Shown in pieces: positions 1 to 16,844 of a stretch of 32,000 bases of DNA (its first letter is position 1; the number at the start of each line of letters is the position of its first letter). The notes beneath the pieces are model-generated. The model searched no databases, had not been told where the DNA came from, and saw nothing but the letters and a program-made list of their open reading frames with translations. This DNA is from Candidatus Electronema halotolerans (GTDB lineage: Bacteria > Desulfobacterota > Desulfobulbia > Desulfobulbales > Desulfobulbaceae). The stretch is taken from positions 2,790,001 through 2,822,000 of the forward strand of contig OW818675.1 of assembly GCA_942493095.1 (NCBI GenBank), in the 5' to 3' direction. A program made the translations under genes and the position numbers.

Positions 1-1371
1 CATATCCAACGGCGAACAGGCAGGACGACGGAATTCATTCTTCATGAGGATGTCAGCATAGCTTTTAGATTGTTGACTGCGGTAGAGCTTGCCATACATC
101 TTATAAGCCAGAACCTCAAGCACGACTGCATTGGTGGTGCAGGTCGCCGTGCGTTCATAGCCGCCGTCTTTTTCCCGCCGTCCCTCAAACCAGCCCTTCT
201 CAGGGTCATGCAGCGGACTGACAAGCTGCATCAGCCCATCTGTATAGGATGTTTTCCATAAAGCCCACATCCCAAAGGCTGCGGAATTGGCCACCAAGGC
301 CAGATCAGGATGCAGCTCGCCTTCCGGGGTCAGCGTGTTCCACGCATAGCCGTCAGCAAAAATCGAGTTGTAGAGAAGATAAGGCGGCTTGCTGCGCCGG
401 TAATTTGTCCGGGCCGTGAAAATTCGCTCGTACTGGTAGCGTTTTTCCTGCACTTTGTAGATGCGCCAAGCCAAATCTGCCAAGGCGGCATTGCTGCTGT
501 AGGAATCAGGACTGAATTGGTCGTTCAAGGTGTCCCAGTTGAATTCCAAACCCAGCAAAAGATAAGGCAGGCTGACCAAGGGATCAGAGATGCCGGTCTT
601 GCGGCTGTCTTCTTTGCTGGCAGGCAGGTCTATATCATAAATGCTGACGACCGGAGGCTCTTTCCGGTGTGACATAGGAAAGCCCCACGTTTTGTAGCCC
701 ATGAGCGCATAGTCATAATAACCAAGCGGCTCTTTTGGGGATGCTGGCAGCGGATTTTTGCTGCTGTTGCGGTTTATTCCTGACAGTTCACCGCATTCAT
801 TGATCACTTTGCAGAAATTCCAGCGCAAGATGGCCTTGTCAATATATTCACTGTACTGCGGGGCATAATCGCTGAGAATTTGCAGCCAGATCAGCAGACG
901 GCCAATATCGACTGCCGACCAGCCATCATTGCTTTCCTGCTCTCCGTTCTTGGCATTATAAAACAGATTGGGCAGCTGGCCATAAGACAAGGGCATGTTG
1001 TTGAGGAATTCCAGCAACGGCGTGATGCGGTGATCAAATTCGTAGTTGTCAATCAGGCCGAGACGATGCGCCGACACAGTTGCCGCCACAGTATCAGCGA
1101 TATTCCATACATTGGCAGTGACGAAGCTGTCAACTCCATTCACCAGCCCTGTTTCAGCGTTATAATTATTGATAAAATACTGCCATGCAATTTTTGCCCA
1201 TTCCATCTCCTGCTCGGTCAGCTTGCCGTGCCGACCCTGCCAGAACATTTCTGAATCTGCCACCTCAGTCAGTCCTTTCTTTGTTTCACGCACGACAAGA
1301 CCGCAGCTTTGCAGAAAGAACAAAGCGGTGACTGCAATCAAGCTGAAGGAGAGAAAACGGGAGGACAGCAT
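1..1371 (-). CDS. DUF3131-like periplasmic glycan-processing protein, paralogue A (probable lipoprotein; 3' end runs off the window)
   Basis: Absent from the ORF track because it leaves the window. I checked the frame by hand (codons 1-3 through 1369-1371) and found no stop in 457 codons. The ATG at 1369-1371 overlaps the TGA of the upstream gene (TGATG). The N-terminus MLSSRFLSFSLIAVTALFFLQSC looks like a signal peptide with a lipobox. It shares EWAKIAWQYF, SAVDIGRLLIW, RIYKVQE and PPY..YN blocks with the ORFs at 1371-2810 and 3734-5062. Confidence 0.8.
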   Translation of the reverse strand, partial: MLSSRFLSFSLIAVTALFFLQSCGLVVRETKKGLTEVADSEMFWQGRHGKLTEQEMEWAKIAWQYFINNYNAETGLVNGVDSFVTANVWNIADTVAATVSAHRLGLIDNYEFDHRITPLLEFLNNMPLSYGQLPNLFYNAKNGEQESNDGWSAVDIGRLLIWLQILSDYAPQYSEYIDKAILRWNFCKVINECGELSGINRNSSKNPLPASPKEPLGYYDYALMGYKTWGFPMSHRKEPPVVSIYDIDLPASKEDSRKTGISDPLVSLPYLLLGLEFNWDTLNDQFSPDSYSSNAALADLAWRIYKVQEKRYQYERIFTARTNYRRSKPPYLLYNSIFADGYAWNTLTPEGELHPDLALVANSAAFGMWALWKTSYTDGLMQLVSPLHDPEKGWFEGRREKDGGYERTATCTTNAVVLEVLAYKMYGKLYRSQQSKSYADILMKNEFRRPACSPLDM

Positions 1372-2810
1372 CACGTATGCTCACGCAGGCATTGAGCGCG
1401 ATCGCGGGCCTCCGGCGGGCACTCGTCCATGGTTTTGTCCCAGCGGGACGGCTGCGGCGACTGATTGAAGCGCAGTATTTTGCCCTGCGCTTTATAGAGC
1501 AGGCATTCTAAAATGATGCCATTATTGTTGGCAGTGAAGATATTGATGTTGCCCGATCCATTTTCATACAGCCCCTCATAAAAACCTTTTTCAGGATCAT
1601 ACAGATGGCCGACCGCATCAAGCAGCGTCTGCGAGTAGGGCATGTCCCAGACAGCCCAAATGCCGAATGCACCCTTCAGTGCCACGGCAGCGAACTGCGG
1701 CATGAGCTTTCCATCAGGGTCCATAGTGTTCCAAGGGTACCCATCGCTATAAATGGTGTCATAGACAAAGTACGGGGGCTGATCAAGCTGATGCTCGGTG
1801 CGGGCGGTGAGAATGCCGGTGTCCTTGTAACGTGCCTCCTGCACAGCAAAAATCCGCTTGGCAAAGTTTGCCAAGACCTGATCGGTGTGAACTTCTTGAG
1901 AGCTGCTGCGGTCAGATGACAAATCCCAACCCAGTTCAATGGCATCAAGCACATAACTTTCTGTGACGACATAATTATGAGCCACCAAGGTGCGCGGGTC
2001 GCGACTGTCGTAAGGAACTTCTATGTCATAAATGGGAATGGTCTGATACGGCTCCAGTTTTGAAGCCCGTTCCGTGTCAAATCCCCAAAGCTGGAAGCCC
2101 TTGGCTGCATATTCTTCATAACCGAGACGGCCTTCTTGCAGATAAAGAATTTTTCCATCTTTGAGCATGGCAGAGAACATAGTGCCAGTGTCATCAATCA
2201 TATTGGAAAAATTCCATTTCAGGATAAAATTGTCAATTGCAGCGGCATGAATGGGGTACCGTTCCTTGACAATTTTAAACCAGATCAGCATCCGGCCCAT
2301 GTCAACTGCGGAATAGCCAACCTCGCCGGGCTGATTGCTGTAATCAACTTTCGCGCCTGTCTGGGTGTGATAAACTTTGTTGGGAAGTTCGTTGTTGAAG
2401 AATTCAAGGCGGTTGAGCATGCCAATCAGCTTGGTCATGCGCATGTTGAATTCGTGCTTTTCAATCACCCCCAATTCATAGGCTGAAACTAAGCCGCCTA
2501 TGTAGGAGGCGGTATCCCACATAGTGGTTGATGGATATTGGTCAACCGCATTGCACATGCCGTTGTCCTGGGTATTCTTCTCAAAGAATTTCCAAGCAAT
2601 CTTTGCCAATTCAAATTCTTCTTCAGTCAGCGGCGCAGGAGTCCGCTCACGGATGCCTGCCAGCTTGGAAGAGACGGACGCGCTTTTGCCGCTGTTTTTT
2701 CCGCCTTCGTCAGAAAGTTTCACAGGCGCAAAGGGACTGTTATTGCCGGTGCAGGCGGAAAAAAACAGGAACACGCTGCAAGACAGGAGCAGAAAATTTT
2801 TTCGGCGCAT
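1371..2810 (-). CDS. DUF3131-like periplasmic protein, paralogue B (probable lipoprotein)
   Basis: This is the 494-aa ORF. I prefer the internal ATG at 2808-2810, which gives MRRKNFLLLSCSVFLFFSAC (signal peptide plus lipobox-like Cys); the track start is 2855. It is a paralogue of the genes at 1-1371 and 3734-5062. The family name rests on remembered motifs (AKIAW.FF, PNK.Y...G, SAVD.GR.LIW), not on a search. Confidence 0.75.
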   Translation of the reverse strand: MRRKNFLLLSCSVFLFFSACTGNNSPFAPVKLSDEGGKNSGKSASVSSKLAGIRERTPAPLTEEEFELAKIAWKFFEKNTQDNGMCNAVDQYPSTTMWDTASYIGGLVSAYELGVIEKHEFNMRMTKLIGMLNRLEFFNNELPNKVYHTQTGAKVDYSNQPGEVGYSAVDMGRMLIWFKIVKERYPIHAAAIDNFILKWNFSNMIDDTGTMFSAMLKDGKILYLQEGRLGYEEYAAKGFQLWGFDTERASKLEPYQTIPIYDIEVPYDSRDPRTLVAHNYVVTESYVLDAIELGWDLSSDRSSSQEVHTDQVLANFAKRIFAVQEARYKDTGILTARTEHQLDQPPYFVYDTIYSDGYPWNTMDPDGKLMPQFAAVALKGAFGIWAVWDMPYSQTLLDAVGHLYDPEKGFYEGLYENGSGNINIFTANNNGIILECLLYKAQGKILRFNQSPQPSRWDKTMDECPPEARDRAQCLREHT

Positions 2811-2884
2811 GACAATTGAATGACAGAGGGAAAGATAATTCGCCCGGCAGCGCAAAAAATGGGCGAGATACGAAGTGAAAGAAA

Positions 2885-3682
2885 CTATTCCTTATTTTCA
2901 CTGTCCTTGGTTTGATTTTCAGATGCGGAGACCGGAAACAGTGCGCCGTTCTTCTTGGCATACTCAATCAGCTTGATGTCCATTTCAGATTCTCTGACAT
3001 AGGAATCCTGCAAATTCGCATCTTCCAAATCTGCTTTGAGAAAGTTCACTCCGCCGAACTTGGCCTTGCTTAAATTGGCTTTTTTCAGCACCGCCTTGTT
3101 CAGGTTGACGGCCTGCAAGCGTGCTCCCTCCAGATTGCATGACTGCATCTTTGCCTCGACGAAATTTGACTGTTCAACAGATGCTTCCCGCAGATCAGCC
3201 TGCAAAAACATTGCTCGTAAAAAATTTACGGCTGAGGCATGAAGACCGAACAAGTTTGCGCCTGAGAAATCTGTGGAGGAAAAGTCTGACTGAGAAAAAG
3301 ATGCCTTTTTCGCCGAAGCGTTCTGAAAGTCAGCATCCTGCAAATGCGATTGAAAGATATGACTGTTGTTCAGATTGGCATCCTTGAAATTAGCATCTTT
3401 GCAATTCGCTTGAATAATTGAAACATACTCCAAGTTGGCTGACTGCAGATCAGCATCTTGCAGGCTTGACTGAAAGATATAGGCATCTTTCAGGTTTGCT
3501 CCGGTCAAGTCGGCATCCTGCAAATCAAGTCGTTCCAAGTTTGCGCCAGAAAGATCGCATTTTCTGCATTGCTTGCTTGCCAGCAGTTTGTCAAGATCGG
3601 CCTGATTGAAGGCTTGTGCTGAAAAGGAAAAAAGAGATTCAGCTGCAAGCAGCAAACTGATTGATAATATTGTTTTTTTCAT
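2885..3682 (-). CDS. Secreted pentapeptide-repeat protein
   Basis: The ORF has a signal peptide MKKTILSISLLLAAESLFSFSAQA. About 40 consecutive A(D/N)LxX pentapeptides follow (ANLERLDLQDADLTGANLKDAYIF...). It ends with TAG. The ATG at 3680-3682 is preferred over the TTG at 3691. Confidence 0.85.
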   Translation of the reverse strand: MKKTILSISLLLAAESLFSFSAQAFNQADLDKLLASKQCRKCDLSGANLERLDLQDADLTGANLKDAYIFQSSLQDADLQSANLEYVSIIQANCKDANFKDANLNNSHIFQSHLQDADFQNASAKKASFSQSDFSSTDFSGANLFGLHASAVNFLRAMFLQADLREASVEQSNFVEAKMQSCNLEGARLQAVNLNKAVLKKANLSKAKFGGVNFLKADLEDANLQDSYVRESEMDIKLIEYAKKNGALFPVSASENQTKDSENKE

Positions 3683-3733
3683 AATGATCAATGAGTTGAT
3701 TTAATACGAAACAATGAATTGAAGCAGAGCCGC

Positions 3734-5062
3734 TTACTTGACTCCGCTGTTTAAGCTGGTCAGTCTGCCAAACTGCATGGCGGCCAGACTTTCCAAGACA
3801 ATTCCGTTGGTGTTGGCGGTCAGCACCTGATTCGGCTTGCCATTTTTTTCGTAAATGCCAGCATACCAGCCGCGTTCCGGGTCATTCAGGTTCTTAACAT
3901 TATCTAAGAGCAGCTTGGTGTAATCTGTGCGGTAGAGCGCATGCCAGCCAAAGGCCGCTTTGGTGCTCAGGGTTTTGAACGGTTCGGCATCTTTGCCGTC
4001 ATCTGTGACAGCCTTCCAGAACTGGCCATTGACAAAGACTGTGTTGTAAACAAAATAAGGGGCCTGATCAATATGATCCTCACTCACAGCTGTGGGAATG
4101 CCGGTGGCCTTGTGCTGCTCCTCCTGCACGCGATACACGCGCCAGGCAAATTCACCCATCACCCGCCCGCCGCCGAATTCAAGTCCGTCAAGAATATACG
4201 GCTCGCTGACCACATAGTTGAGCGCATCAAAGGTTTTGGCGTCACGGCGGTCCGCAGGCACATCAATATGATGCTGCCGATGAAACTCCAAATAGGCTTC
4301 CGCGTTCTCAGCAATGCTGACATCCAAGCCCAGCAGAGCTGCGGCCCGGGCCGCATACTGCTCATAGCCCAGCCGCCCTTCCTGCACCTGCTCAGTCTGG
4401 CCGTTTCTGACCACAGCTCCTATGAGCTGCCCGTTTTTCACCAAGGCGGACCATTGCCAACGCTGGAGAAGTTTCCGCACCTCCACTGCGTGTTCTGGAT
4501 AATTCCAGACAATAATATGGAGCGGCACCAGCAGCCGGGCAAGATCAATGGCTGACCAGCCAATGCCTTCCGGGCTGGGGTTGTTGGCGTAATCCGTCAT
4601 GGCCAGCGTCTGGGTATTGTACGACTTGTTGGGCAGTTGATCAGCAAAGAGCGGCAGGCGGTCAAGACTAAGCAGAGCCTGCGACAGCCGGTCATCAAAG
4701 GTATGATGGGCTATGATCTCCAAGCGGTAGGCACTGATCAAGGCCATCATATATGAGGCAGTATCCCACAATGTGGTGGCTGGATAATCCTGCACCGAAT
4801 TGACCAGACCAGTTTCCTGCTGCCAGTTGTTTTCAAAATATTGCCAAGCAATCTTCGCCCATTCGCGCTCTTCGCTGTTCAGGGGTGCAGGCTGCGGCAC
4901 GGGAATGTCATCATGATAGGCTGATGCGGCAATTTTGCTGACCGTGAAGTCAACATCCCACAATTCCAAAGTGATCACCAGTCCGCTGGCTAAAATTAAG
5001 CCAATAATCATGGCAAGGTAACTGCGGGCCTGAAGCAGCCCCTGTTTGAATGAAATGCTCAT
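3734..5062 (-). CDS. DUF3131-like protein, paralogue C (N-terminal membrane anchor)
   Basis: The track ORF extends to 5191, but the ATG at 5060-5062 forms an ATGA overlap with the stop of the GT2 gene. That start gives MSISFKQGLLQARSYLAMIIGLILASGLVITL, a single TM anchor. The rest is collinear with paralogues A and B (EWAKIAWQYFENN, SAIDLARLLVP, RVYRVQEEQ, APYFVYN). Confidence 0.8.
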   Translation of the reverse strand: MSISFKQGLLQARSYLAMIIGLILASGLVITLELWDVDFTVSKIAASAYHDDIPVPQPAPLNSEEREWAKIAWQYFENNWQQETGLVNSVQDYPATTLWDTASYMMALISAYRLEIIAHHTFDDRLSQALLSLDRLPLFADQLPNKSYNTQTLAMTDYANNPSPEGIGWSAIDLARLLVPLHIIVWNYPEHAVEVRKLLQRWQWSALVKNGQLIGAVVRNGQTEQVQEGRLGYEQYAARAAALLGLDVSIAENAEAYLEFHRQHHIDVPADRRDAKTFDALNYVVSEPYILDGLEFGGGRVMGEFAWRVYRVQEEQHKATGIPTAVSEDHIDQAPYFVYNTVFVNGQFWKAVTDDGKDAEPFKTLSTKAAFGWHALYRTDYTKLLLDNVKNLNDPERGWYAGIYEKNGKPNQVLTANTNGIVLESLAAMQFGRLTSLNSGVK

Positions 5063-6897
5063 ACCTGTGGTTTCCAAAACGCGGCCAGAATCAGCCTGCT
5101 GAGAGCGATGATATTGTATGTGCCCCAGAAGGTGTTGATGATCACACCGCCGCAGGTGTGCGGCCCTGCGCCGCTGAGAAGCATGCTCCACGCATAGATC
5201 ATGCCGGTCAACGTCAGCAAGGATATGGTGAACTGCGGCAAGACCAAATAAAAGAAATTGCCTTCCTGCCGCTCCTTGGGCGTGACCGGGAATTTAATTC
5301 TTTCGCCTTTGATCACGGTCAGCAGAGCACGCAAATTTACCGAAAAGAAAGCAAGGTACAATGCTTTGCCCGGAAAGCCGTTCAAACCCCAAGTGCCTGT
5401 CATAAAGGCTAATTCTGTAAGCAGCAGAAAGGGCAGGATGTGTTTGAAAAAGTCCGGGGTGTAGGCGGAGACCGGTGAAATGCCGCTGAACAGATAGACG
5501 ATCGGGCCAAGCAGGAAAATCAGGTTCCATATTCCGCCGAGATAGGACCAGAGCGTGGCCCCGTACATCAGCCGCTGGCGCAAGGAAAGGCCGCGCCGGA
5601 AGAGCATCCGGTCCCGCAGCATGATGTCCAAGGTGCCGCCCGCATATTTGAACCGCTGCACCATCCAGCTTTGCAGGTCCTGCGGCGAGAGCATCTTGCT
5701 TTCCACTTCAGGATGCTGCACAGACTTCCAGTGTCGATCCGCATCGCTATGGAGAATGATCGAGGTGTAAATATCTTCAGACACGTGAAATTTATACGGA
5801 GTGAGCGGGATAATTCTTGCTGTATCCAGTCGCTGCGCATATTTCTCCGCAGTTTCTGGATTCAGGTTCTGCTTTACAAAGAACCGCTTAATTTTTTGGT
5901 TCAGTCTCTGCTCCAGCTTGTGCGTATTGTTGACAGTGTCCGAATAGTTTTTCAGTGCCGCCTCCATGACCGCATCCCGGCGATGGATGGAGCCTGCGCC
6001 GCAGCAGAACGCCGCGTTGACCCAGTTGCGCCGCCTCAGAATCACATCATAGAACATCTTGGGATCATTGGTCAAGGGATCATGGCCAATCTGCACCGGC
6101 CCGACCAAGCGTTCAATGCCCCGCGCCAGCCAGCGGCCCAAAGTGCTTTGCCAGACCGAAGACAATGGGCGGCCTTCCGGCAGGTCGTAAAACCATTGCG
6201 GAGTCTGCACCCACGCCACATCAGGATCACGAAAATAACCGAGCGTGTGCTCCAGCAAAGTGGGAAAAGGCCGGGTGTCCGCATCGCAGATGACTATAAG
6301 ATCACCGCTGGTCTGTTCCATTGCATGAGCAAGATTGCCAGCTTTGAAGCCAATGCTGCTGTCGCGGACAATATACTCAACCCCTTCCTCCTCAGCCACC
6401 TGCCGCATGGCTGGCCGACGGCCATCGTCCAGCACATGAATTTTCATTGTCAGCGGAAACGGATAGCTCATCAGCTTGGCATCTTGGATGCTCAGACGGA
6501 CCAGTTCCACATCCTCATTGACCGTGGGAAAGAATATATCCACCTTCAGAGGACGGTCTGGATAATGATCTGGCTGGGCCACACATTCCTTGATGGAATG
6601 TGGCGGTCTGCGACGGGGCGTGTCCTGCACCTTCCAGAGATTGATGGTGAACAGTGCCAGACCGATATAGGCGCAGGTTTCCGCTGCGGCCAATGGGATG
6701 GAAAACCACCACAGCGAGAACCATGTGCCGCTGCTGGCATAATCAATGGAGTAGCACCAGCGCCAGCTAATATACCACGCGCCGACCGCAAGATTCAGGC
6801 TGGCCAGCAGCTGCCAGAGAAATTCGGCAACCGGCTGGACCGGCAGCGGCGGCGGCGGCTGGCGGCTTTCAAATCTGCTGAAATAAAACTCAGGCAT
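5059..6897 (-). CDS. Processive family-2 glycosyltransferase (cellulose/curdlan-synthase-like beta-glycan synthase), no PilZ domain
   Basis: The 612-aa ORF has TM helices on both sides of a GT-A domain. VLDDG (aa 155-159), ICDADT (203-208), HVSEDIYTS (371-379) and QRFKY (414-418) sit where the D, DxD, TED and QxxRW motifs of BcsA-type synthases sit. It lies 9 nt downstream of the acyltransferase stop. Confidence 0.85.
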   Translation of the reverse strand: MPEFYFSRFESRQPPPPLPVQPVAEFLWQLLASLNLAVGAWYISWRWCYSIDYASSGTWFSLWWFSIPLAAAETCAYIGLALFTINLWKVQDTPRRRPPHSIKECVAQPDHYPDRPLKVDIFFPTVNEDVELVRLSIQDAKLMSYPFPLTMKIHVLDDGRRPAMRQVAEEEGVEYIVRDSSIGFKAGNLAHAMEQTSGDLIVICDADTRPFPTLLEHTLGYFRDPDVAWVQTPQWFYDLPEGRPLSSVWQSTLGRWLARGIERLVGPVQIGHDPLTNDPKMFYDVILRRRNWVNAAFCCGAGSIHRRDAVMEAALKNYSDTVNNTHKLEQRLNQKIKRFFVKQNLNPETAEKYAQRLDTARIIPLTPYKFHVSEDIYTSIILHSDADRHWKSVQHPEVESKMLSPQDLQSWMVQRFKYAGGTLDIMLRDRMLFRRGLSLRQRLMYGATLWSYLGGIWNLIFLLGPIVYLFSGISPVSAYTPDFFKHILPFLLLTELAFMTGTWGLNGFPGKALYLAFFSVNLRALLTVIKGERIKFPVTPKERQEGNFFYLVLPQFTISLLTLTGMIYAWSMLLSGAGPHTCGGVIINTFWGTYNIIALSRLILAAFWKPQV

Positions 6898-6906
6898 CTT
6901 CAGGAT

Positions 6907-7941
6907 TCAGCATATCTGGCGGAGATAGGAATTTTTTCTCATCACAGCAATGCCGCAATAAGAAAGAGCAAATGTTGCCAAAGAAATGGCCGGGATATGC
7001 GCATAGCCGGGCAGGTTGAATCTGTAAAACACAGATGAGAGTAAATCCAGCACCATTGGGTGGAGCAGATAAATGCCAAAAGAATTTGCAGAGACTGCGG
7101 CAATCAAGGCAATGCCTTTTGCAGGCGCAGATTTTTTGAAAAAAAGAAAAACTGCCATAGACAAAACAAAAGAAATGATTCCTTTGTCGTTCAAAACAAG
7201 ATAGTCTTTGACGATCTGATATTTTTCAATAAGGAAAAAATTTGTGCCTGCGCCGAGCAGGACTGTCAGAACAATCAGCAGGGCAAGGAGGATTCTTTTG
7301 ACAGACAAGGACTCTCCATATTTATCAAAATAATATCCGGCAATGAAGTAGATGATATACCACTGAAAGAGCAAATGCCAGTACATGAAGATGCCGCTTG
7401 TTTCTCTGGCCAGATCAGCAATGGTGTTCAAAAGAAAAAACAAGGCTGCTGCACTGAGAAAAACAGCGAGATCAGTCTGCGACGGTTTTTCGCCGAGCAC
7501 GAAACTGTTGATGAAGGGCACAAAGAGCATCAGGCAGGCAAACATGGACAAATACCAGAGATGCACATACGCGCTTCCTTCTGACCAGAAATCGACAGTC
7601 AGGAAACGGACCAGTTCTTCCTGTCCCATGCCTTTATATATCCTGAACAACAGATAAAAAATGGACCAGAAAAGAATCGGCGGCACTAACCTGACTGCCC
7701 GTTTGCGGTAAAAATCACCTACAGTCATCTGTCTGCCCAGTAGCACCGCTCCTGATATCATGACAAAGACCGGCACGGCGAAACGCGAGCCCGCATTGAG
7801 CAGATTGGCTGTCCACCAGCTTATCGGATCAATTTCGCTGATTCTGCCATACCATGCTGCGGTTGAATGAATAAAGATGACCGCAACAGTTGCCGCAGCC
7901 CGCAGATAATCAATATATATTTTTCTTGTTTTGCCGCTCAT
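6907..7941 (-). CDS. Membrane acyltransferase family 3 (OpgC/OafA-like glycan O-acyltransferase)
   Basis: A polytopic ~10-TM protein with the typical N-terminal IDYLRAAATVAVIFIHS block of Acyltransferase_3 proteins. The ATG at 7939-7941, 11 nt after the upstream stop, is preferred to the TTG at 7965. Confidence 0.75.
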   Translation of the reverse strand: MSGKTRKIYIDYLRAAATVAVIFIHSTAAWYGRISEIDPISWWTANLLNAGSRFAVPVFVMISGAVLLGRQMTVGDFYRKRAVRLVPPILFWSIFYLLFRIYKGMGQEELVRFLTVDFWSEGSAYVHLWYLSMFACLMLFVPFINSFVLGEKPSQTDLAVFLSAAALFFLLNTIADLARETSGIFMYWHLLFQWYIIYFIAGYYFDKYGESLSVKRILLALLIVLTVLLGAGTNFFLIEKYQIVKDYLVLNDKGIISFVLSMAVFLFFKKSAPAKGIALIAAVSANSFGIYLLHPMVLDLLSSVFYRFNLPGYAHIPAISLATFALSYCGIAVMRKNSYLRQIC

Positions 7942-7952
7942 TTTTTTTGCTG

Positions 7953-8807
7953 TCACCAGTGCCAAGTGATGCCGATGCCGCCTTCGGCAAAGCCGCCGTC
8001 ATAGGGCATGTCGTCATGCCACGGAAAACGGTTTCCCCGATAATTTTTATACGCTATCGTGAACGATTCATTGCGATAGCCTAACTCAAAGGTGTAGTCA
8101 GGACTCCAAGGTTGCTGCTGACTGCTGTCCAGATAATAAAACAGATTGAAGCTGAGATACCAGCCCTCATAGATCGGCGCGTCAAAACTGAGGCTCAGGC
8201 GGGTCTGATCTCGCTGGAGCTGTCCGTCTTGATCAACATACTTGGGTGCATGCAAAATGCTTGCCTTGCAGCCAATCGTTTTGTCTGTTTCTATCAGAAA
8301 AGGTCGCGCCAATTCACCGGACAAAGGCAGATTCCATGTCAGGGTGTAAGTTCCCTGATCATATTTTTCCACAATGTCGCTGCTGGAGCGGTTGCCTGAG
8401 TAATTGCTGTACACCAAGCTCAAGGCATAAGGCCGCCAGTCTTCACAGCCGAAGCGATAGACAAAATCAGGGTCCCACGGCTTGCGTTCGCTTCTCTCCA
8501 AGTAATGAAAAAAATTAGCTTCCGCAAACCAGAAACCCAATGGCGTGAATTTAACGGTCGCATTGGCAATCGGCGTGTAGCTGCTTTTATCGTTTTTGGC
8601 GGCGGTCAGTCCGGCATCAATTTTCCACGGATTGGCAAGCTGCTCCAGCAGGCCTTTGTCCTGAACATCCTCCAGCCATTCGCCGACCGGGAGGGTAAAT
8701 GATTCTTCCAAACCCTTCCAGACATCATCCCATGTTTCTTCCGCCTCCACGTTTCCGGCCAGCAGCAAAAGACATGCTGCACTGACAAAAATTGTGGAAT
8801 GGGTCAC
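7953..8807 (-). CDS. Secreted hypothetical protein, probable small outer-membrane beta-barrel with an internal duplication
   Basis: GTG start. The signal peptide is MTHSTIFVSAACLLLLAGNVEA. Alternating aromatic/polar strands are present, and the C-terminal ...GIGITWHW ends in an aromatic residue like an OMP beta-signal. Two homologous ~50-aa modules each end in Y-x-N-Y-x-G-N-R. I recognise no family. Confidence 0.6.
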   Translation of the reverse strand: MTHSTIFVSAACLLLLAGNVEAEETWDDVWKGLEESFTLPVGEWLEDVQDKGLLEQLANPWKIDAGLTAAKNDKSSYTPIANATVKFTPLGFWFAEANFFHYLERSERKPWDPDFVYRFGCEDWRPYALSLVYSNYSGNRSSSDIVEKYDQGTYTLTWNLPLSGELARPFLIETDKTIGCKASILHAPKYVDQDGQLQRDQTRLSLSFDAPIYEGWYLSFNLFYYLDSSQQQPWSPDYTFELGYRNESFTIAYKNYRGNRFPWHDDMPYDGGFAEGGIGITWHW

Positions 8808-8841
8808 GTCCTGAAACTCCTGCTGAATGAACTTTAAAAAG

Positions 8842-8871
8842 AGTATAGAGGCTGGCCTGATGATTTTGCAA
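8842..8871 (-). promoter_or_regulatory. Putative sigma70 promoter of the glycan operon
   Basis: On the minus strand: TTGCAA (8866-8871), an 18-nt spacer, then TATACT (8842-8847). An AGGAG lies upstream of the GTG at 8807. It sits in the 96-nt gap after der. Confidence 0.4.
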
Positions 8872-8903: not shown

Positions 8904-10241
8904 TCAGCCCTTATCCCTGCCACTCCGCTCGCGGAAAAAGAGGCGCAGCGGCACTCGGTCTAAGCCAAGTCCTTCCCGGAAGCGATTGGTGAGATAGCGC
9001 TGATAGGAAAAGTGAATGCCTTTGGGCTGATTGGCAATCACAGCAAAAGTGGGCGGGGCGGTGCTGATCTGGGCTGTGTAGTAGAGTTTCAGGCGGCGGC
9101 CCTGATACATGGGCGGCTCATGCTTGGCTTTGGCCTCCTCCAAGAGCCGGTTGAGAGCCGCAGTGGGGAACCGCTGGGTGAACTGGCGATGGATTTTGCC
9201 GATTTCCGGGAAAAGCCGCTTGATGCCTGCGCCGGTCTTGGCCGAGACCTTGAAAATAGGAACAAAAGGAATGAAGTTGGTTGCCAGTCGCACTTTCTCC
9301 AAGAGCTGCTCCTGCCGTTTCTTGTCACCCTCAAGCAAGTCCCATTTGTTGAGCAGAATCAGCAAGGCGCGGCCCTGCTCCTGGGTATAGCCGATGATCT
9401 TGGTGTCCTGCTCGGCAATGCCCTCGTCTGCGTCAATCAGGACAACTGCTATGTCGCAGCGGCTCAGGGAATGCAGGGCCTTGAGCACGGAGAATTTTTC
9501 CAGCTTGTCGGTGGTCTTGCCCTTGCGCCGGATGCCGGCAGTGTCGATGAGCAGGTAGCTGTGCTGCCCGGCGGTCAGCAGGGTGTCAACGGCATCGCGG
9601 GTGGTGCCGGCCACATCTGAGACCATCATCCGCTCCTGACCCATGATGGCGTTGATCATCGAGGACTTGCCCACATTCGGACGGCCCAGAAAGGCCAGCC
9701 GGACTGTGCCTTCGGGCAGCTCTGCCGGAGTAGCGGTTTTGTCCAATTTTTCCGCCAAGGCTTGCATCAGGGTGTTGAAACCGTAGCCGTGATCTGCGGA
9801 TAAGGCCCAGAGCTGCTCCACGCCCAGCTCCCAGAAAGGCGTGAGCAGCTCGGTTTCAATATCTGGCGAATCAATCTTGTTGACCGCGAAAAAAACAGTC
9901 TTGTCGGTGCGCCGAAGCAGGTCTGCCAGCTCATGGTCGCCGGGCATCACGCCTTGGCGGCCATCAAGCAGGAGAATGATGATGTCCGCCTCCTCCAGAG
10001 CCTGCATGGCCTGGCTGCGGATATGACTGCTGAACTCGTCCCCGTCCTCCTCAATGCCGCCGGTGTCAACCAGCATGAAGGAACGCTCCTCCCACTGGGC
10101 GCGGGCATAGTGCCGGTCGCGGGTCACGCCGGGCAGAGAGTCAACCAGCGCGTCGCGGCTGCGGGTGATGCGGTTGAACAGGGTGGATTTGCCCACATTG
10201 GGGCGGCCCAGCAGGGCGACTAAGGGACAGGCAGTATTCAC
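8904..10241 (-). CDS. der: Ribosome-biogenesis GTPase Der (EngA)
   Basis: The 445-aa ORF has two tandem G domains, each with GRPNVGKS(T/S), DT(G/A)G and NK(I/W)D motifs. A C-terminal KH-like domain follows (YYTAQISTAPPTF..., RFREGLGLDRVPLRLFFRER). Confidence 0.95.
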   Translation of the reverse strand: MNTACPLVALLGRPNVGKSTLFNRITRSRDALVDSLPGVTRDRHYARAQWEERSFMLVDTGGIEEDGDEFSSHIRSQAMQALEEADIIILLLDGRQGVMPGDHELADLLRRTDKTVFFAVNKIDSPDIETELLTPFWELGVEQLWALSADHGYGFNTLMQALAEKLDKTATPAELPEGTVRLAFLGRPNVGKSSMINAIMGQERMMVSDVAGTTRDAVDTLLTAGQHSYLLIDTAGIRRKGKTTDKLEKFSVLKALHSLSRCDIAVVLIDADEGIAEQDTKIIGYTQEQGRALLILLNKWDLLEGDKKRQEQLLEKVRLATNFIPFVPIFKVSAKTGAGIKRLFPEIGKIHRQFTQRFPTAALNRLLEEAKAKHEPPMYQGRRLKLYYTAQISTAPPTFAVIANQPKGIHFSYQRYLTNRFREGLGLDRVPLRLFFRERSGRDKG

Positions 10242-10300
10242 GATTTCAGAGAAAGGAAGATTCTTGCGGGCTGATTGCGCGCATCAGTTGCGGATTTGCA

Positions 10301-10329
10301 AAGATACCCGCTTGGCGGAAATTTGGCAA
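10301..10329 (-). promoter_or_regulatory. Possible sigma70 promoter for der
   Basis: On the minus strand: TTGCCA (10324-10329), a 17-nt spacer, then TATCTT (10301-10306), about 55 nt upstream of the der start. Based on sequence pattern only. Confidence 0.3.
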
Positions 10330-10386
10330 GCAGGCTTCCTGCCCGCCCCTCGGCTTAATGCGGATGCACGCTCCGAGTCTGCTGTC

Positions 10387-12462
<2,076 letters not shown>

Positions 12463-12752: not shown

Positions 12753-14238
12753 GTAACTGATCACAGGGTGTCTCTAAAAAACACTGGCGCTTGGCATCGC
12801 AACTGGATAAATTGTGAGCAGTAATTTTTTCCGCAGGAGAAAGCTGTGACCGCCCCGTTCCATTGTGAAAATTTTGAGATAAGCGAGGAAGACCTTGCCG
12901 CTACACCTCCTGCGGTGCGGAAGCTGCTGTCTTTTTTGATCGCTGAGGTAACGCGGCTGAGAAAACGGGTCGAAGAGCTTGAGGCGAAACTCGGCGAAGA
13001 TTCCTCGAACTCGAACAGGCCGCCTTCTTCCGACTCTCCGTTTACAGAAAAACGGCAGAGAGATCAGGCGGGGAAGCCCCGGAAAAAGCGGCGTGGATAT
13101 CGTCAGGAGCTGATGCCGCCGACAGAAACGCAAAAAATGTATCCTTCCGCCTGCTCCTGCGGTTGCGGCAAATTCAAAAACATACGGTCATATTATACGC
13201 ATCAGCATATTGAACTGCCGGAAATCGTGATGCAGGTCAGGCATTTCCTTCTTTATAAAGGGGAATGCGCCGCCTGCGGCAAAACCGTCAGAGGCTGTGT
13301 TCCCGATGAATTCAGAACCGGTTTCGGGGCGCGGTTCACCGCGCTGGTTGCCGAACTGAGCGGCATGGACGGCAGCAGCCGGGGAACTGTGCGGAAGTTC
13401 ATCCGTTCCGTGCTCGGCGTTCATATCAGTGCCGGGGCGGTGCAGAAGATCATTGACAGGGCTTCGGCGGCTGTCGCGCCGCACTATGAGGCCATTTGGG
13501 CTGCCGTCACAAGCGGGGATGTCGGGCATATTGATGAAACGACGTGGAAAACTGGCGGCAGACTGCGCTGGTTATGGGTTATGGCGAACCGGCAGGCCGC
13601 GTTCTTCATGATTCATCCGAAACGCTCTAAGGAAGCCTTTGAAGAACTGATCGGTGCTTGGAACGGTATTCTCATCAGCGACGGATACAACGTGTACCAA
13701 AAATGGGTCGGCAAGCGGCAGACTTGCCTCGCGCATCTTATCCGCCGGGCAGACGGCCTTGCGGAGCGCGCTGACCCTGAACTGGCCGCCTGCGGCAAAT
13801 GGGCCGCTGCGGAACTGCGGCGGCTCTGCCGCATGGCGAAAGACCCGCCGACCAAAGGTGAATGGTCCGCATTTTATGCCCGGCTCTGCCGACTTATCCT
13901 ACGCTGGCGCGATTGCGACAGTGATGCGGGGAGGTTTGTCCGTCATATTGACAAGGAAATGGAGGCGTTGTTCACTTTCTTGCTCGAAGAAGGCGTAGAG
14001 CCGACAAATAATCCAGCGGAACGGATGCTCCGCTTCGGCGTGCTGTGGCGCAAACGGAGTCAGGGCACTGACAGCGACAAGGGAAACCGCTGGGTTGAAC
14101 GAATCCTTTCCCTCCGGCAGACATGCCTGCTTCGGGGAAAATCCACTTTCGAGGTGCTCACCGAGGCCATGCGCTGCTATTTCAGAGGACAGATGCCGGA
14201 TTTAAGCTGGGTCTGAGCGGTACCCTGTGATCGCTTAC
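12753..14238 (+). mobile_element. IS66-family insertion sequence, single-ORF (ISBst12-like) type, copy 1 (1486 bp)
   Basis: The terminal inverted repeats are GTAACTGATCACAGGGTGTC (12753-) and, at the other end read as its reverse complement, GTAAGCGATCACAGGGTACC (-14238). An 8-bp direct repeat flanks it, as is usual for IS66 elements. It carries one transposase ORF. A second copy lies at 19471-20956. Confidence 0.9.
12846..14216 (+). CDS. IS66-family transposase (TnpC-type)
   Basis: The 456-aa ORF has a GTG start 6 nt after AGGAGA. It has an N-terminal leucine-zipper-like helix (LIAEVTRLRKRVEELEAKL), a Cys cluster (CSCGCGKF...CAACGK) and a DDE-type core (HIDETTW..., ISDGYNVY..., NPAERMLR). 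The predicted protein is identical to that of the ORF at 19493-20863. Confidence 0.9.
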   Translation: MTAPFHCENFEISEEDLAATPPAVRKLLSFLIAEVTRLRKRVEELEAKLGEDSSNSNRPPSSDSPFTEKRQRDQAGKPRKKRRGYRQELMPPTETQKMYPSACSCGCGKFKNIRSYYTHQHIELPEIVMQVRHFLLYKGECAACGKTVRGCVPDEFRTGFGARFTALVAELSGMDGSSRGTVRKFIRSVLGVHISAGAVQKIIDRASAAVAPHYEAIWAAVTSGDVGHIDETTWKTGGRLRWLWVMANRQAAFFMIHPKRSKEAFEELIGAWNGILISDGYNVYQKWVGKRQTCLAHLIRRADGLAERADPELAACGKWAAAELRRLCRMAKDPPTKGEWSAFYARLCRLILRWRDCDSDAGRFVRHIDKEMEALFTFLLEEGVEPTNNPAERMLRFGVLWRKRSQGTDSDKGNRWVERILSLRQTCLLRGKSTFEVLTEAMRCYFRGQMPDLSWV

Positions 14239-16844
14239 ACCGACATTGACCGGACAAGCGGGACAAAAGCCTTCTGGATGATTTCGTATGCCTGCGCAGT
14301 TGCCAGCACAAGCCAGCCTTCGGCACAGACATCGCCTGGAAATCGGTTATGTCGGTGAATGGAACCGTCCTGCCACCAGAGACTTTGCACCATCGGAGAA
14401 CCTTCAGCGTCCTCCCAACTGAAAAGGCCGGTCTTGCTGGATTTCCAGCCCAATCCTAAAGCCAGTTCAGGGTTAAAGGCCAGCCATTCCTGGCTGCCAA
14501 TTTCACGTGCGCGAGGACTTCCAAAAACAGCAACGGCTCGAACAAACTGCATGTGTAAATGCGGATACTCTTCAGCAGTCCACCAGTGTTCAGTCGGAAA
14601 AAAAGAGGGTGCATTGATTGGAGTGTCAAACAACCGCTTATCTGGATGAGCTAACATGCTGAAGCGATATTCAAATTGCTTGTCGTCATCCATCTGGCGA
14701 ATTTGTGTCAGTTCAGCCAATGCTATCAGACCATTTTCTTTGATCTGCTCAGGCATTAAAGCATAGCCATCCGTGCAGCAGCTCGGCCAGTCCTGCTCCC
14801 GAATTTCCTCCTTTCCTGGCAGCAAAATTTCGTTTGGACGCAAAGAAGGACGCTGGCAGGACATCACTTTGTCATTACCTCTGGTCAGCTGGATGAGGAA
14901 TGCCGCATCTTGGCCGCTCAGTTTTTCCGCATCAATTAGCTCGGCAATAACATGGCGCAGGGCTTTTAATGCCTGCTGTGGCCGCAGACGATAATTGACA
15001 AGTTTCAGTTCCGCCGCTTCCAGCCAGTTTCTCATATTTTCTTCAGCCTGTTTGTTCCATTCTTCCTGCGAAGAGAGGCTTTTCATTAAGATGGCAGCAC
15101 GGGCAATCAGATTTTGCAATGGAATGTCGGATGCTTTACTCATCAGGTCAAACAGATAATCAAACGGACGAATCATGTCCAAGGAATCATTCGTATCCGG
15201 GAAGGAACCGCCTTGCGGCAGAGCCTCAAAGGGAACAGCTTCCTCTTGAGTGGGAAAATCTGGCAGCTCCCAGGTGTAGGTGGGCGGCAACGCCGTAAAC
15301 GCGGGCAGAGCAAAGGGCAAATTCAAGGCTTGTGCCAACTGCACCGCCATTGCTCGGATAGTCATATTCGGAGAACTGATCAATGTTTTGAATTCAGCAG
15401 CAAACTCGGCAAGGTATTCCGGTCGTTGTTCCAAAATGGTTTCACAGACCGCCAAGGCATGACGTGCCTCGCTTTCACTGCCAGTCAGCAAATTGCGCAG
15501 TAACTGACTTGATGCGACATCGTATGCAGGAGCGAGACATATCCTGTGCAAGGCGAGATGCGCTTCGGTGCGGATTTCAGGAACCTCAATCTTCATTGCG
15601 TCTGCAACGAGCTGAAGCAGGACGGTCTGCCATGAAGAAATGTTTTCCAACACAGGCGGCGGCATCTCTTCAGAAAGAGAGAACTCGTGGAGCTGGTAAA
15701 CATGTTCTCGAATTTCCTGCCAGATTTTATCAAGTGGTGGGAATGCAAACAGGACTGGAAAAAAATCATCAATGCCTTCTACATATCTTCTTGGCCAATG
15801 CCAGTGGGCAATATAGTCTTTGACGAAACGTTGAAAGGCGTATTTACGGCCTTCTTCACCATCAAACTTGATCATTGCCAGCATCAACTTCAGTCGGATT
15901 CCTCCATCGAAATCTCGGTCCCATCCTCGCGGGTCTGAGCGTTCAGCCAGCTCCTTTAGGAATGCCCGGCCTTCTTTTTCATGGCCCAATGCCTTCAGAC
16001 GCTCTGCCAGCAACATTTCCACCAGAAGATTGCCCTTCAGCGTATCGCGCAACTGCCCAATTTGCGTATAATTGATCGTTTCAGAAATCTTTTCTACGGC
16101 TTCTTCCCAACGAAAATACTTCTGTTCTTCAATTTGATTGATAAAACTCAGAAGAGAGTTGCCGGATGTGATGCGCAACAGGACATCTTTTCTCCTTAGC
16201 TCTTCTCCGTTTTTCAAGCGGATCGCAATATCGTGATCATAGGTTTCCTCTTTGTCGTCCTGCACCACCTTTTCGCAGAAACGTTCAGCATCAATACCAG
16301 CAGCCTGCAAACCTTTGGCAATGCCGCGCCACCACCCGGCCCGATGCGAAGGGAATATCTTGGTGGCAACGGTTTGTTCGAGGTACTCAAGCAGCATCTG
16401 AGCTTCAGTTTCGGAATTCCTTGTGCTGATTGCCTGCGCAAGCACTGCCGGGAGTTTGTCGGGAACGCTATTGGAAAAAGGCAGCAGCAGGTGACAGGCA
16501 AGGATGCAGACCATCTCAATAGAAGCATCGGAAGATGAAGCAGCCGCAGTCAATATGCCGCTTAACGCATCCTCGTAAGCAATGCTGTGCTGATCCAAAA
16601 GCCAGTTTTTGAGCTGCACGGCATAGTCCGGCTGCCATTGTGCGACCAAAGTTATCAGATCAACAGCGGCATCACGGATTCCTCGGCCTCTGTACGTTGT
16701 TACAAAGGTCACAAGAGCAGCAGCAAACCTGCGGATATCCTCTTCTACCAACTCAGGATGTGCCGCCGCAGTCTTTGCCAGCAGATCGACCCAAAAGGAA
16801 AACTGGTAGTCTTTGTCGTAAACCACACCAAAGCTGTTCTGCAA
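14235..16844 (-). CDS. Helical-repeat (HEAT/TPR-like) C-terminal portion of the disrupted STAND gene, or a separate partner ORF; 3' end clipped by IS copy 1
   Basis: The 869-aa ORF uses a TTG 'start' with no SD. It is in the same frame as the upstream ORF and separated from it only by a TAG plus 38 sense codons. Its stop (14235-14237) lies inside the IS terminus. Removing the IS extends the frame by 19 codons to a TGA at 12687-12689. Confidence 0.6.
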   Translation of the reverse strand: MQNSFGVVYDKDYQFSFWVDLLAKTAAAHPELVEEDIRRFAAALVTFVTTYRGRGIRDAAVDLITLVAQWQPDYAVQLKNWLLDQHSIAYEDALSGILTAAASSSDASIEMVCILACHLLLPFSNSVPDKLPAVLAQAISTRNSETEAQMLLEYLEQTVATKIFPSHRAGWWRGIAKGLQAAGIDAERFCEKVVQDDKEETYDHDIAIRLKNGEELRRKDVLLRITSGNSLLSFINQIEEQKYFRWEEAVEKISETINYTQIGQLRDTLKGNLLVEMLLAERLKALGHEKEGRAFLKELAERSDPRGWDRDFDGGIRLKLMLAMIKFDGEEGRKYAFQRFVKDYIAHWHWPRRYVEGIDDFFPVLFAFPPLDKIWQEIREHVYQLHEFSLSEEMPPPVLENISSWQTVLLQLVADAMKIEVPEIRTEAHLALHRICLAPAYDVASSQLLRNLLTGSESEARHALAVCETILEQRPEYLAEFAAEFKTLISSPNMTIRAMAVQLAQALNLPFALPAFTALPPTYTWELPDFPTQEEAVPFEALPQGGSFPDTNDSLDMIRPFDYLFDLMSKASDIPLQNLIARAAILMKSLSSQEEWNKQAEENMRNWLEAAELKLVNYRLRPQQALKALRHVIAELIDAEKLSGQDAAFLIQLTRGNDKVMSCQRPSLRPNEILLPGKEEIREQDWPSCCTDGYALMPEQIKENGLIALAELTQIRQMDDDKQFEYRFSMLAHPDKRLFDTPINAPSFFPTEHWWTAEEYPHLHMQFVRAVAVFGSPRAREIGSQEWLAFNPELALGLGWKSSKTGLFSWEDAEGSPMVQSLWWQDGSIHRHNRFPGDVCAEGWLVLATAQAYEIIQKAFVPLVRSMSV
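14239..14246. repeat. Target-site duplication ACCGACAT, right of IS copy 1
   Basis: Matches 12745-12752. Confidence 0.85.

Follow-up and report, generated by a model that had tools for sequence, protein, structure and literature searches.

Known Beta-Glucan Systems and the Electronema Operon

Osmoadaptation, symbiosis, and virulence depend on periplasmic and cyclic beta-glucans, and the only routes to these glucans that are known are those of the OpgGH, Cgs, and NdvB types. The osmoregulated periplasmic glucan (OPG) system consists of the glycosyltransferase family 2 (GT2) synthase OpgH, OpgG/OpgD of glycoside hydrolase family 186 (GH186), which act as beta-1,2-glucanase or transglycosylase, and the succinyltransferase OpgC. 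In this study, a stretch of 32,000 nucleotides (nt) from Candidatus Electronema halotolerans, a cable bacterium, was analyzed (contig OW818675.1, positions 2,790,001 to 2,822,000 of the forward strand; the whole stretch is referred to as the window). Positions 1–8807 of its minus strand carry seven co-directional genes (g1 to g7), directly downstream of der (EngA GTPase, 8904–10241). The probable product of this operon is a beta-glucan of the periplasm or cell envelope, made by a synthase-dependent pathway in which a BcsA-like GT2 is combined with three proteins of the family DUF3131, referred to as DUFa, DUFb, and DUFc. The genes are as follows, with lengths in amino acids (aa):

7953–8807, minus strand: g1, 284 aa, signal peptide ending VEA/EE, 12-strand outer-membrane barrel in the predicted model
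6907–7941, minus strand: g2, 344 aa from ATG, with an open reading frame (ORF) that reaches a TTG at 7965; Acyl_transf_3 (PF01757, E 9e-41)
5059–6897, minus strand: g3, 612 aa, GT2 by Pfam, BcsA-like, predicted synthase-translocase
3734–5062, minus strand: g4 (DUFa), 442 aa, DUF3131 (PF11329, E 4e-144), N-terminal membrane anchor
2885–3682, minus strand: g5, about 265 aa, pentapeptide-repeat protein (PF00805, E 7e-35), signal peptide ending AQA/F
1371–2810, minus strand: g6 (DUFb), 479 aa, DUF3131 (PF11329, E 5e-123), lipobox FSAC
1–1371, minus strand: g7 (DUFc), DUF3131 (PF11329, E 5e-89), lipobox LQSC, 457 of 466 aa inside the window

The full length of g7 (466 aa) and the end of the operon were read from contig L081, which comes from another sample and is 99.96% identical.

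By analogy, the operon is organized like the OPG system, in that an inner-membrane GT2 would supply glucan to paralogous periplasmic enzymes (hydrolases or transglycosylases) and the product would be decorated by an acyltransferase of the membrane. A true OpgC-family gene is present in 10 of 80 related loci, which were taken from GTDB species genomes and anchored on g4-type DUF3131 proteins, as well as in clusters of Salmonella and Klebsiella, and in Shewanella piezotolerans the DUF3131 genes have been grouped into one co-expression module of the salt-shock response (PMC8371737). However, the two systems have no orthologous part, as none of the seven proteins matches the OpgH, MdoG, or OpgC_C families. 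In addition, the operon has (alpha/alpha)6 DUF3131 proteins instead of GH186 and possesses a dedicated outer-membrane barrel, and most related lineages carry partner-switching regulators.

Comparison with Cgs showed that DUF3131 is similar to the N-terminal part of its GH189 cyclization domain (E 1.9e-4) and has the same (alpha/alpha)6 fold, and the DUF3131 motif QEGR may tentatively correspond to SEAR, the acid/base motif of GH189. The DUF3131 proteins are nevertheless stand-alone and periplasmic, whereas the Cgs domain is cytoplasmic and part of a protein of ~2800 aa; moreover, the polymerase of the operon is a GT2 and not GT84 plus GH94, and no Cgt/ChvA exporter is present. The best fold neighbors of DUF3131 are found in the SGL clan (clan GH-S), which includes GH144 (CpSGL), GH162 (TfSGL), GH192 (EeSGL1), GH193, and GH194 (PgSGL3); likewise, these are single (alpha/alpha)6 barrels of ~420 aa, many of them secreted. 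The identity is nonetheless 9–14%, no sequence-level match to GH144, GH162, GH192, GH193, or GH194 was obtained, and the gene context of DUF3131 is biosynthetic rather than degradative. As for the cellulose synthase BcsA-BcsB, g3 shares with it the catalytic core, the interface helices, the transmembrane channel region, and the FxVTxK gating loop, and next to g3 the operon has a gene for a periplasmic (alpha/alpha)6 enzyme, as in BcsA-BcsB-BcsZ. The operon differs in having no PilZ, BcsB, or BcsC, in scoring far under the family cut-offs, and in carrying QRFKY in place of QxxRW.

DUF3131 Proteins

All three DUF3131 proteins are members of PF11329, scoring 480.6 (g4), 411.2 (g6), and 299.3 bits (g7) against a cut-off of 20.3, with positions 1–367 of the model covered. 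The AlphaFold2 model of g4 (predicted local distance difference test score, pLDDT, of 90.2) shows an N-terminal helix at residues 5–40 followed by an (alpha/alpha)6 barrel. When this model was compared with the PDB by Foldseek, 19 of the best 20 matches (ranks 1–18 and 20) were beta-1,2-glucan enzymes, namely GH192 EeSGL1, several GH144 enzymes, GH189, GH194 PgSGL3, and GH162 (E 2e-11 to 4e-6), with template modeling (TM) scores of 0.52–0.62 against SGL-clan structures. The sole exception was CPF_2247 at rank 19, and GH8 BcsZ and other six-hairpin enzymes ranked next, from E ~1e-5. Used singly as queries against PDB sequences, g4, g6, and g7 returned nothing useful, and the DUF3131 profile gave a weak match to TiCGS, in the N-terminal part of its GH189 domain, at the E-value mentioned above. 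Fragments of Cgs genes in two loci obtained by a homology search with a TiCGS fragment (L085, 3964–5872, and L086, 10001–11431) are matched by PF11329 over the first ~100 GH189 residues and by PF10091 further on, so that Pfam splits one homologous domain between two families. PF10091, labeled “Glycoamylase”, is the GH144-type model.

With the exception of the orphan Group 4, all characterized members of the SGL clan have beta-1,2-glucan as their substrate, and DUF3131 is not named among the seven groups of the clan, as far as the text of that work shows (PMC12102758). Based on its modeled fold, DUF3131 looks like a further, uncharacterized branch of the SGL clan. An earlier note on this DNA, made from the sequence alone, had inferred that these proteins process, cyclize, or hydrolyze a glycan, and this inference agrees with a barrel nearest to the beta-1,2-glucanase and cyclase clan and with the match of PF11329 to part of GH189.

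In DUFa and DUFb proteins, the residues D100, D173, E228, E234, E295, and E328 are (almost) fully conserved, at 94–100%. The lipoprotein paralogue g6 possesses the full conserved set, and its orthologues are 53–80% identical. In the DUFc class, including g7, W99/D100, E287, D292, and N417 are lost, E228 is kept in 68%, and E328 is relaxed. Since these include residues conserved at ~100% in the other classes, DUFc may be a diverged class with a changed or non-catalytic role.

In the SGL clan, the general-acid glutamate has been described as E239 of XcSGL, equivalent to E211 of CpSGL, E262 of TfSGL, and E1356 of TiCGS, and the conserved aromatic residues as Y367 (subsite −3) and F286 (near the nucleophilic water) of XcSGL. 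The GH189 reference used for comparison consisted of two domains stitched from the frameshifted Cgs fragments of L085 and L086, in which E1356, E1400, E1442, and H1536/37 were located by offset from the published construct boundaries. In a MAFFT merge, E228 of QEGR (100% in DUFa and DUFb) aligned with E1356 of SEAR, a pairing without hhalign support, as hhalign joined only the N-terminal 87 columns of DUF3131 to GH189 (probability 50%). The general acid of DUF3131 is tentatively placed at E228; the placement is tentative because the alignment of the catalytic half comes from the MAFFT merge only and has no statistical support. The DUF3131 position aligned with the GH189 nucleophile E1442 was ambiguous, with E295 nearby. 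A mapping made by eye, with E328 as the nucleophile and ANTNG equivalent to AHHQG, was contradicted by the merge and was discarded.

The position of H1536/H1537, the conserved histidine pair that supports the nucleophile in GH189, aligned with A428/M429 in g4 and with Y/K in g6 and g7 in the same merge, and no invariant or near-invariant histidine was found in an alignment of 25 DUF3131 sequences. The DUF3131 domain comprises ~375 aa, compared with 587 aa in TiCGS (residues 1005–1591), and the helical insertion of ~190 residues specific to GH189 is absent; GH189 is marked by a long alpha5 and by additional helices between alpha4 and alpha5. Given the absence of this insertion and of a conserved histidine pair, and the stand-alone, periplasmic nature of the proteins, DUF3131 is judged not to be GH189 proper.

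The family is represented by 1,342 sequences at 50% identity (E ≤ 1e-3). Some members contain three or four tandem domains (1393–1820 aa; P0327, P0328, and P0329), and many others have N-terminal extensions of 250–650 aa with no Pfam match. No fusion of GT2 with DUF3131 was found among the long members.

GT2 Synthase

The closest solved relative of g3 is BcsA (E ~5e-28), and the alignment runs through the transmembrane region. Against the CelA model TIGR03030, g3 scored 205 bits (E 1.5e-60), under the equivalog cut-off of 699 bits, and against NF008558 it scored 153 bits with a cut-off of 992; the matches to PgaC or NodC models were far weaker than that to CelA, at E ~3e-5 only. NCBIfam returned no OpgH-family match for g3. 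A PilZ domain was not matched either, and the protein stops after its last transmembrane segment. BcsB was found neither in the operon nor in the annotated related clusters. The earlier note had likewise listed BcsB and a PilZ domain as missing from the locus.

The motifs DDG, KAGN, DAD, QTPQWF, FCCGAGS, SED, and QRFKY are invariant in 71 homologues of g3, and the gating-loop motif FPVTPK (FxVTxK in BcsA) is highly conserved, with F, T, and K present in 69–71 of the 71. The most distinctive feature is the replacement of the QxxRW motif, canonical for processive GT2 synthases, by QRFKY in 71/71 homologues (window 5650–5664, region of g3 residues 412–416, motif at aa 414–418). In BcsA, the tryptophan of QxxRW stacks on the acceptor sugar; a tyrosine occupies this position in all 71 proteins. 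The grouping of g3 with processive rather than non-processive synthases, on which the earlier proposal depended, is backed by the relationship to BcsA, by the D, DxD, and SED motifs, all kept, and by the conserved gating loop. Taken together, QRFKY for QxxRW, the lack of PilZ and BcsB, and the score far under the CelA cut-off, with the other motifs kept, suggest from sequence that g3 represents a distinct subfamily of processive synthase-translocases, and its product is not readable from these features.

Conservation of the Gene Neighborhood

Adjacency of GT2 and DUFa could be assessed where the sequence reached 1.9 kb or more upstream, which was the case for 72 loci. In all 72, a g3-type GT2 (53–82% identical) lies directly upstream of DUFa on the same strand, with a median inferred gap of ~41 nt. 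The order GT2, DUFa, DUFb, DUFc is found in Vibrio, Photobacterium, Shewanella, Ferrimonas, Noviherbaspirillum, Desulfoluna, Kapaibacterium, and others, and the combination of GT2, three DUF3131 genes, and the barrel recurs in several phyla, namely in the first six of these genera and on plasmids of Salmonella and Pantoea. An arrangement kept across phyla is more than chance, and the co-conservation expected in the earlier note was thus observed. The exact seven-gene set, called unusual in the earlier note, is confined to cable bacteria; the conserved core consists of GT2 and DUF3131, usually joined by a partner-switching module that the window lacks.

On a Salmonella IncF plasmid the cluster has a divergent layout, with RsbW, STAS, a SpoIIE phosphatase, a g1 homologue, and OpgC on one side and GT2 (56% identical), three DUF3131 genes, a globin, a hybrid regulator, and GH2 on the other. 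Nostoc plasmids carry a related gene set, and one Nostoc cluster includes a PIG-L deacetylase. In Klebsiella, a cellulose synthase, three DUF3131 genes, and OpgC have been reported together, in a cluster among the accessory genes that track the main ecological axis of the species (PMC12974863). A DNA-level comparison with complete E. coli genomes gave no match to the cluster. Filamentous bacteria, such as Thiothrix, Beggiatoa, Leucothrix, Desulfonema, and cable bacteria, account for many of the best homologues. This enrichment was considered as a pointer to a sheath polymer and rejected as specific evidence, since unicellular vibrios, Shewanella, and enterobacteria carry the cluster just as well. 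Two published systems, the Zetaproteobacteria stalk cluster and the Enterobacter bcsI-III operons, proved to be unrelated.

A partner-switching module (response-regulator PP2C phosphatase, STAS, and RsbW-like kinase) was identified in 53–64 of the 80 loci, and none is present in the window. A sugar-1-phosphate nucleotidyltransferase (32/80) and GH2 (33/80) are further accessory genes, neither of which lies in the window. On L081, a convergent gene for a 109-aa STAS protein (10291–10620) is located just past the operon end, beyond window position 1. Partner-switching proteins beside a GT2, as in most related loci, are reminiscent of Anabaena HenR/All4160 (PMC13555669), although there the STAS domain is fused to the glycosyltransferase, whereas the window has no module and only the STAS gene outside it. 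In Photobacterium aphoticum (L078, 6392–7579), a nucleotidyltransferase of 395 aa with a left-handed beta-helix tail is encoded between the STAS and RsbW-like genes. In the PDB it matches 8x7s, named UTP-glucose-1-phosphate uridylyltransferase (E 6e-126), compared with ~1e-35 for mannose-1-phosphate guanylyltransferases; no paper on 8x7s was found in the literature search. Because this gene sits inside the partner-switching module, the nucleotide-sugar supply itself may be a target of the switch.

Outer-Membrane Barrel

The AlphaFold2 model of g1 (pLDDT 89.7) has 12 strands with an internal two-fold repeat. No Pfam or NCBIfam family matched at E ≤ 10, and 86 homologues were found. The fold matches were weak and included FapF, NanC, the KdgM-like oligogalacturonate porin VhGalP, OmpG, and Tsx (query-normalized TM score, TMq, 0.35–0.42); NanC and VhGalP, which stand for the 12-strand KdgM/NanC type of oligosaccharide porin, gave TM scores of 0.4–0.5. 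The protein is 31% identical (E 1e-33) to the hypothetical protein encoded beside OpgC in the Salmonella plasmid cluster, and 31 of the 80 loci carry a g1 homologue no more than 10 kb from the anchor. From the model, g1 is a candidate oligosaccharide or glucan channel, and a small substrate-specific pore would suit oligosaccharides better than a polymer. The locus had been described in the earlier note as missing a porin exporter; this does not hold, as a 12-strand barrel co-conserved with the cluster would supply an outer-membrane channel.

Proposed Pathway and Alternative Explanations

In the pathway that we consider probable, the GT2 would polymerize a UDP-sugar, probably UDP-glucose, and extrude the chain into the periplasm, where DUFa, positioned next to the synthase through a conserved transmembrane helix of its own, would cut or transglycosylate the nascent chain and thereby set the product size. 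DUFb and DUFc would process the product further, the acyltransferase g2 would decorate it, and the barrel g1 would let oligomers cross the outer membrane. In function, such a pathway would be a counterpart of both the OPG system and Cgs, assembled from non-orthologous parts. Because the fold neighbors of DUF3131 are beta-1,2-glucan enzymes, beta-1,2 is favored as the most likely chemistry, albeit at a somewhat less than even chance, and the product is possibly linear or cyclic. The match of the Photobacterium in-cluster nucleotidyltransferase to 8x7s hints at glucose as the sugar, and the salt-shock module of Shewanella piezotolerans mentioned above hints at an osmotic role. The substituted beta-glycan deduced in the earlier note is thus supported by the neighborhood, the DUF3131 fold, and the GT2 motifs, while the product itself is still an inference. 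The three outcomes that the note had named as refuting its proposal were each looked for, and none emerged. No functional study of DUF3131 or of the cluster was found in a full-text literature search, in line with the earlier statement that the pathway has not been worked out experimentally.

Several points weigh against this pathway. The nearest relatives of the GT2 make beta-1,4-glucan, and the similarity of DUF3131 to the SGL clan is moderate (TM 0.52–0.62 at 9–14% identity). The catalytic half of DUF3131 aligned with GH189 at an hhalign probability of 0.04%, that is, with no statistical support, and PgSGL4 of Group 4 has no beta-1,2-glucanase activity (PMC12102758). The sugar and the linkage are both inferred, and transcription of the seven genes as a single unit is a prediction read from their layout. 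In 33/80 loci the cluster includes a GH2 nearest to beta-mannosidases (2e-37), which, together with the Nostoc PIG-L deacetylase, would also fit a non-glucan or mixed polymer. Enterobacteria with the cluster are known to have opgGH in their core genome, and the cluster would therefore not be a simple replacement of opgGH.

The relationship of g3 to BcsA, its closest relative among both solved structures and family models, raises an explanation in which the operon makes an exopolysaccharide, either cellulose-like (beta-1,4) or of mixed linkage, as a structural glucan of the filament sheath or of a biofilm matrix, with the DUF3131 proteins as BcsZ-like trimming endoglucanases and g1 as the exit pore. 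We regard this as improbable. It would accommodate the presence of GH8 BcsZ among the fold matches of DUF3131 (~1e-5), the many best homologues from filamentous bacteria, and the acyltransferase, as acetylated cellulose systems also include one. However, BcsB, BcsC, TPR proteins, and PilZ domains are lacking, the CelA score is 205 versus 699 bits with an invariant QRFKY for QxxRW, the 18 best fold matches of DUF3131 are beta-1,2-glucan enzymes and not GH8, and a 12-strand barrel is small for polymer export. Less probable again is a non-glucan polymer, for example a beta-mannan or an amino-sugar polymer, on which DUF3131 would act as a new specificity within the six-hairpin superfamily. Membership of the SGL clan is not enough for beta-1,2-glucanase activity, as PgSGL4 shows, and the beta-mannosidase-like GH2 of the related loci and the PIG-L deacetylase of Nostoc would find a place in such a pathway. 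The best NCBIfam model for the cluster nucleotidyltransferase is a mannose-1-phosphate guanylyltransferase, at a score far under its cut-off, but against PDB structures the same protein matches UTP-glucose-1-phosphate uridylyltransferase at 6e-126, compared with ~1e-35 for mannose-1-phosphate guanylyltransferases. As for the GT2, its match to CelA (1.5e-60) is much stronger than that to PgaC/NodC (~3e-5), and the genes for GH2, the nucleotidyltransferase, and PIG-L are all absent from the window.

Most characterized SGL-clan enzymes are degradative, the fold matches of g1 include the substrate-specific porin NanC and a KdgM-like protein, and GH2 is found in many related loci. From these observations a catabolic or scavenging system can be drawn up, in which beta-1,2-gluco-oligosaccharides from the environment enter through the barrel and are degraded in the periplasm by the DUF3131 proteins acting as glucanases, with no functional connection to the GT2. 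Such a system is very unlikely, given that the GT2 is adjacent to DUFa in 72/72 loci and overlaps it by ATGA in the operon. Furthermore, no sugar ABC transporter or phosphotransferase system, TonB receptor, phosphorylase, or cytoplasmic glucosidase is encoded among the genes of the operon and the annotated related loci, and an acyltransferase makes no sense in this setting.

The beta-glucan pathway thus remains the preferred explanation, and it can be extended to a bolder proposal that we put forward as speculative and, taken as a whole, rather unlikely. DUF3131 would be an unrecognized glycoside hydrolase or transglycosylase family of the SGL clan. Its pairing with a QRFKY-type, PilZ-less, BcsA-like synthase would add to OpgH/OpgG and Cgs a third, independent and widespread way of making periplasmic beta-1,2-glucans, which might be cyclic or of defined size. 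It would be present in at least six phyla and, in most lineages, switched on by phospho-dependent partner switching and not by cyclic di-GMP.

Acyltransferase and Pentapeptide-Repeat Protein

The acyltransferase g2 matches PF01757 with 140.5 bits (cut-off 31 bits) over positions 2–323 of the 326 in the model and has at least six hydrophobic segments. It has no OpgC_C (PF10129) match and could not be aligned to OpgC of the Salmonella cluster. Among the 80 loci, its only close relative is a protein of 65% identity in the cable-bacterium locus L002, next to 25%-identical matches in L055 and L066, and g2 is regarded as an accessory gene specific to this lineage. The label “OpgC-like” given to it earlier should therefore be dropped, since g2 belongs to PF01757 and not to the OpgC family PF10129, and is not orthologous to OpgC of related clusters. 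As the OpgC_C-family acyltransferases of 10/80 loci are non-orthologous to the PF01757 gene of cable bacteria, acylation seems to have been recruited twice, by an OpgC-type enzyme elsewhere and by a PF01757-type enzyme in cable bacteria.

The pentapeptide-repeat protein g5 scored above the Pentapeptide threshold (118.7 bits over 6 stretches) and has ~24 tandem repeat units of the A(D/N)LXX type. Its only relative among the 80 loci is in L002, and it is absent from Electrothrix gigas (L001). By this distribution, g5 is a lineage-specific add-on in cable bacteria. The GC content at third codon positions (GC3) is 0.50 in g2 and 0.49 in g5, clearly under the 0.58–0.67 of the conserved core genes (0.67 in the GT2), which fits later acquisition of both genes. 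The whole operon is less GC-rich than der, which has a GC3 of 0.75.

Operon Layout and Transcription Signals

The genes are separated by spacers of 11 nt (g1/g2) and 9 nt (g2/g3) or overlap by ATGA (g3/g4) and TGATG (g6/g7), all as given in the earlier note, and the signal peptides of g1 and g5, the lipoboxes of g6 and g7, and the N-terminal anchor of g4 are likewise visible in the sequence as it described them. Wider spacers flank the pentapeptide gene (~51 nt for g4/g5 and 74 nt for g5/g6). One promoter candidate was considered:

8842–8871, minus strand: candidate promoter of sigma-70-like type, TTGCAA-18-TATACT, within the 96 nt that separate der from g1, with 9/12 matches

The promoter-like site reported earlier is thus present at 8871–8842, but its consensus match is weak: 13 sites of the 9/12 type were seen in the region versus 8.3 expected by chance. 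With 9/12 matches only, and with that many such sites, it provides weak evidence for a promoter. No terminator-like site was found between der and g1, so that read-through from der is possible, and no riboswitch or other RNA element was detected upstream of the operon with Rfam.

Contig L081 differs from the window by three single-base deletions, all in homopolymer runs (window positions 8840, 7433, and 6937). The deletion at 8840 shortens a T5 run to T4 just downstream of the −10-like hexamer. Those at 7433 and 6937 fall in the acyltransferase gene g2 and split it into ORFs of 170 and 161 aa. Either errors in assembly or naturally occurring frameshifts with loss of g2 function may account for these deletions.

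Surroundings of the Operon

Directly upstream of der, on the minus strand (10387–12447), a protein of 686 aa is encoded with an N-terminal HAD-like hydrolase domain and a C-terminal part of ~450 aa that has no family match. Further along, an IS66-family element of 1486 nt, with a transposase of 456 aa, is present twice, at 12753–14238 and 19471–20956, in perfect inverted orientation. The two copies bracket 5232 nt with two large minus-strand ORFs, 14235–16844 (869 aa) and 16959–19343 (794 aa), neither with a Pfam match. In its layout, the bracketed segment resembles a composite transposon.

Biological Significance

The carriers of the cluster include Klebsiella, plasmids of Salmonella and Pantoea, vibrios, Shewanella, sulfur-oxidizing filaments, cyanobacteria, and cable bacteria, and if the cluster makes a glucan, a large blind spot in envelope glycobiology would be exposed. 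A function would then be provided for a DUF family and for an unnamed family of outer-membrane barrels, and it would follow that a cellulose-synthase-type enzyme can pair with SGL-clan enzymes and that polysaccharide synthesis is linked to partner-switching control. Tractable enterobacterial plasmids are among the carriers. For cable bacteria, in which the analysis saw no tie to conduction, the operon is a candidate source of an envelope or periplasmic glycan.

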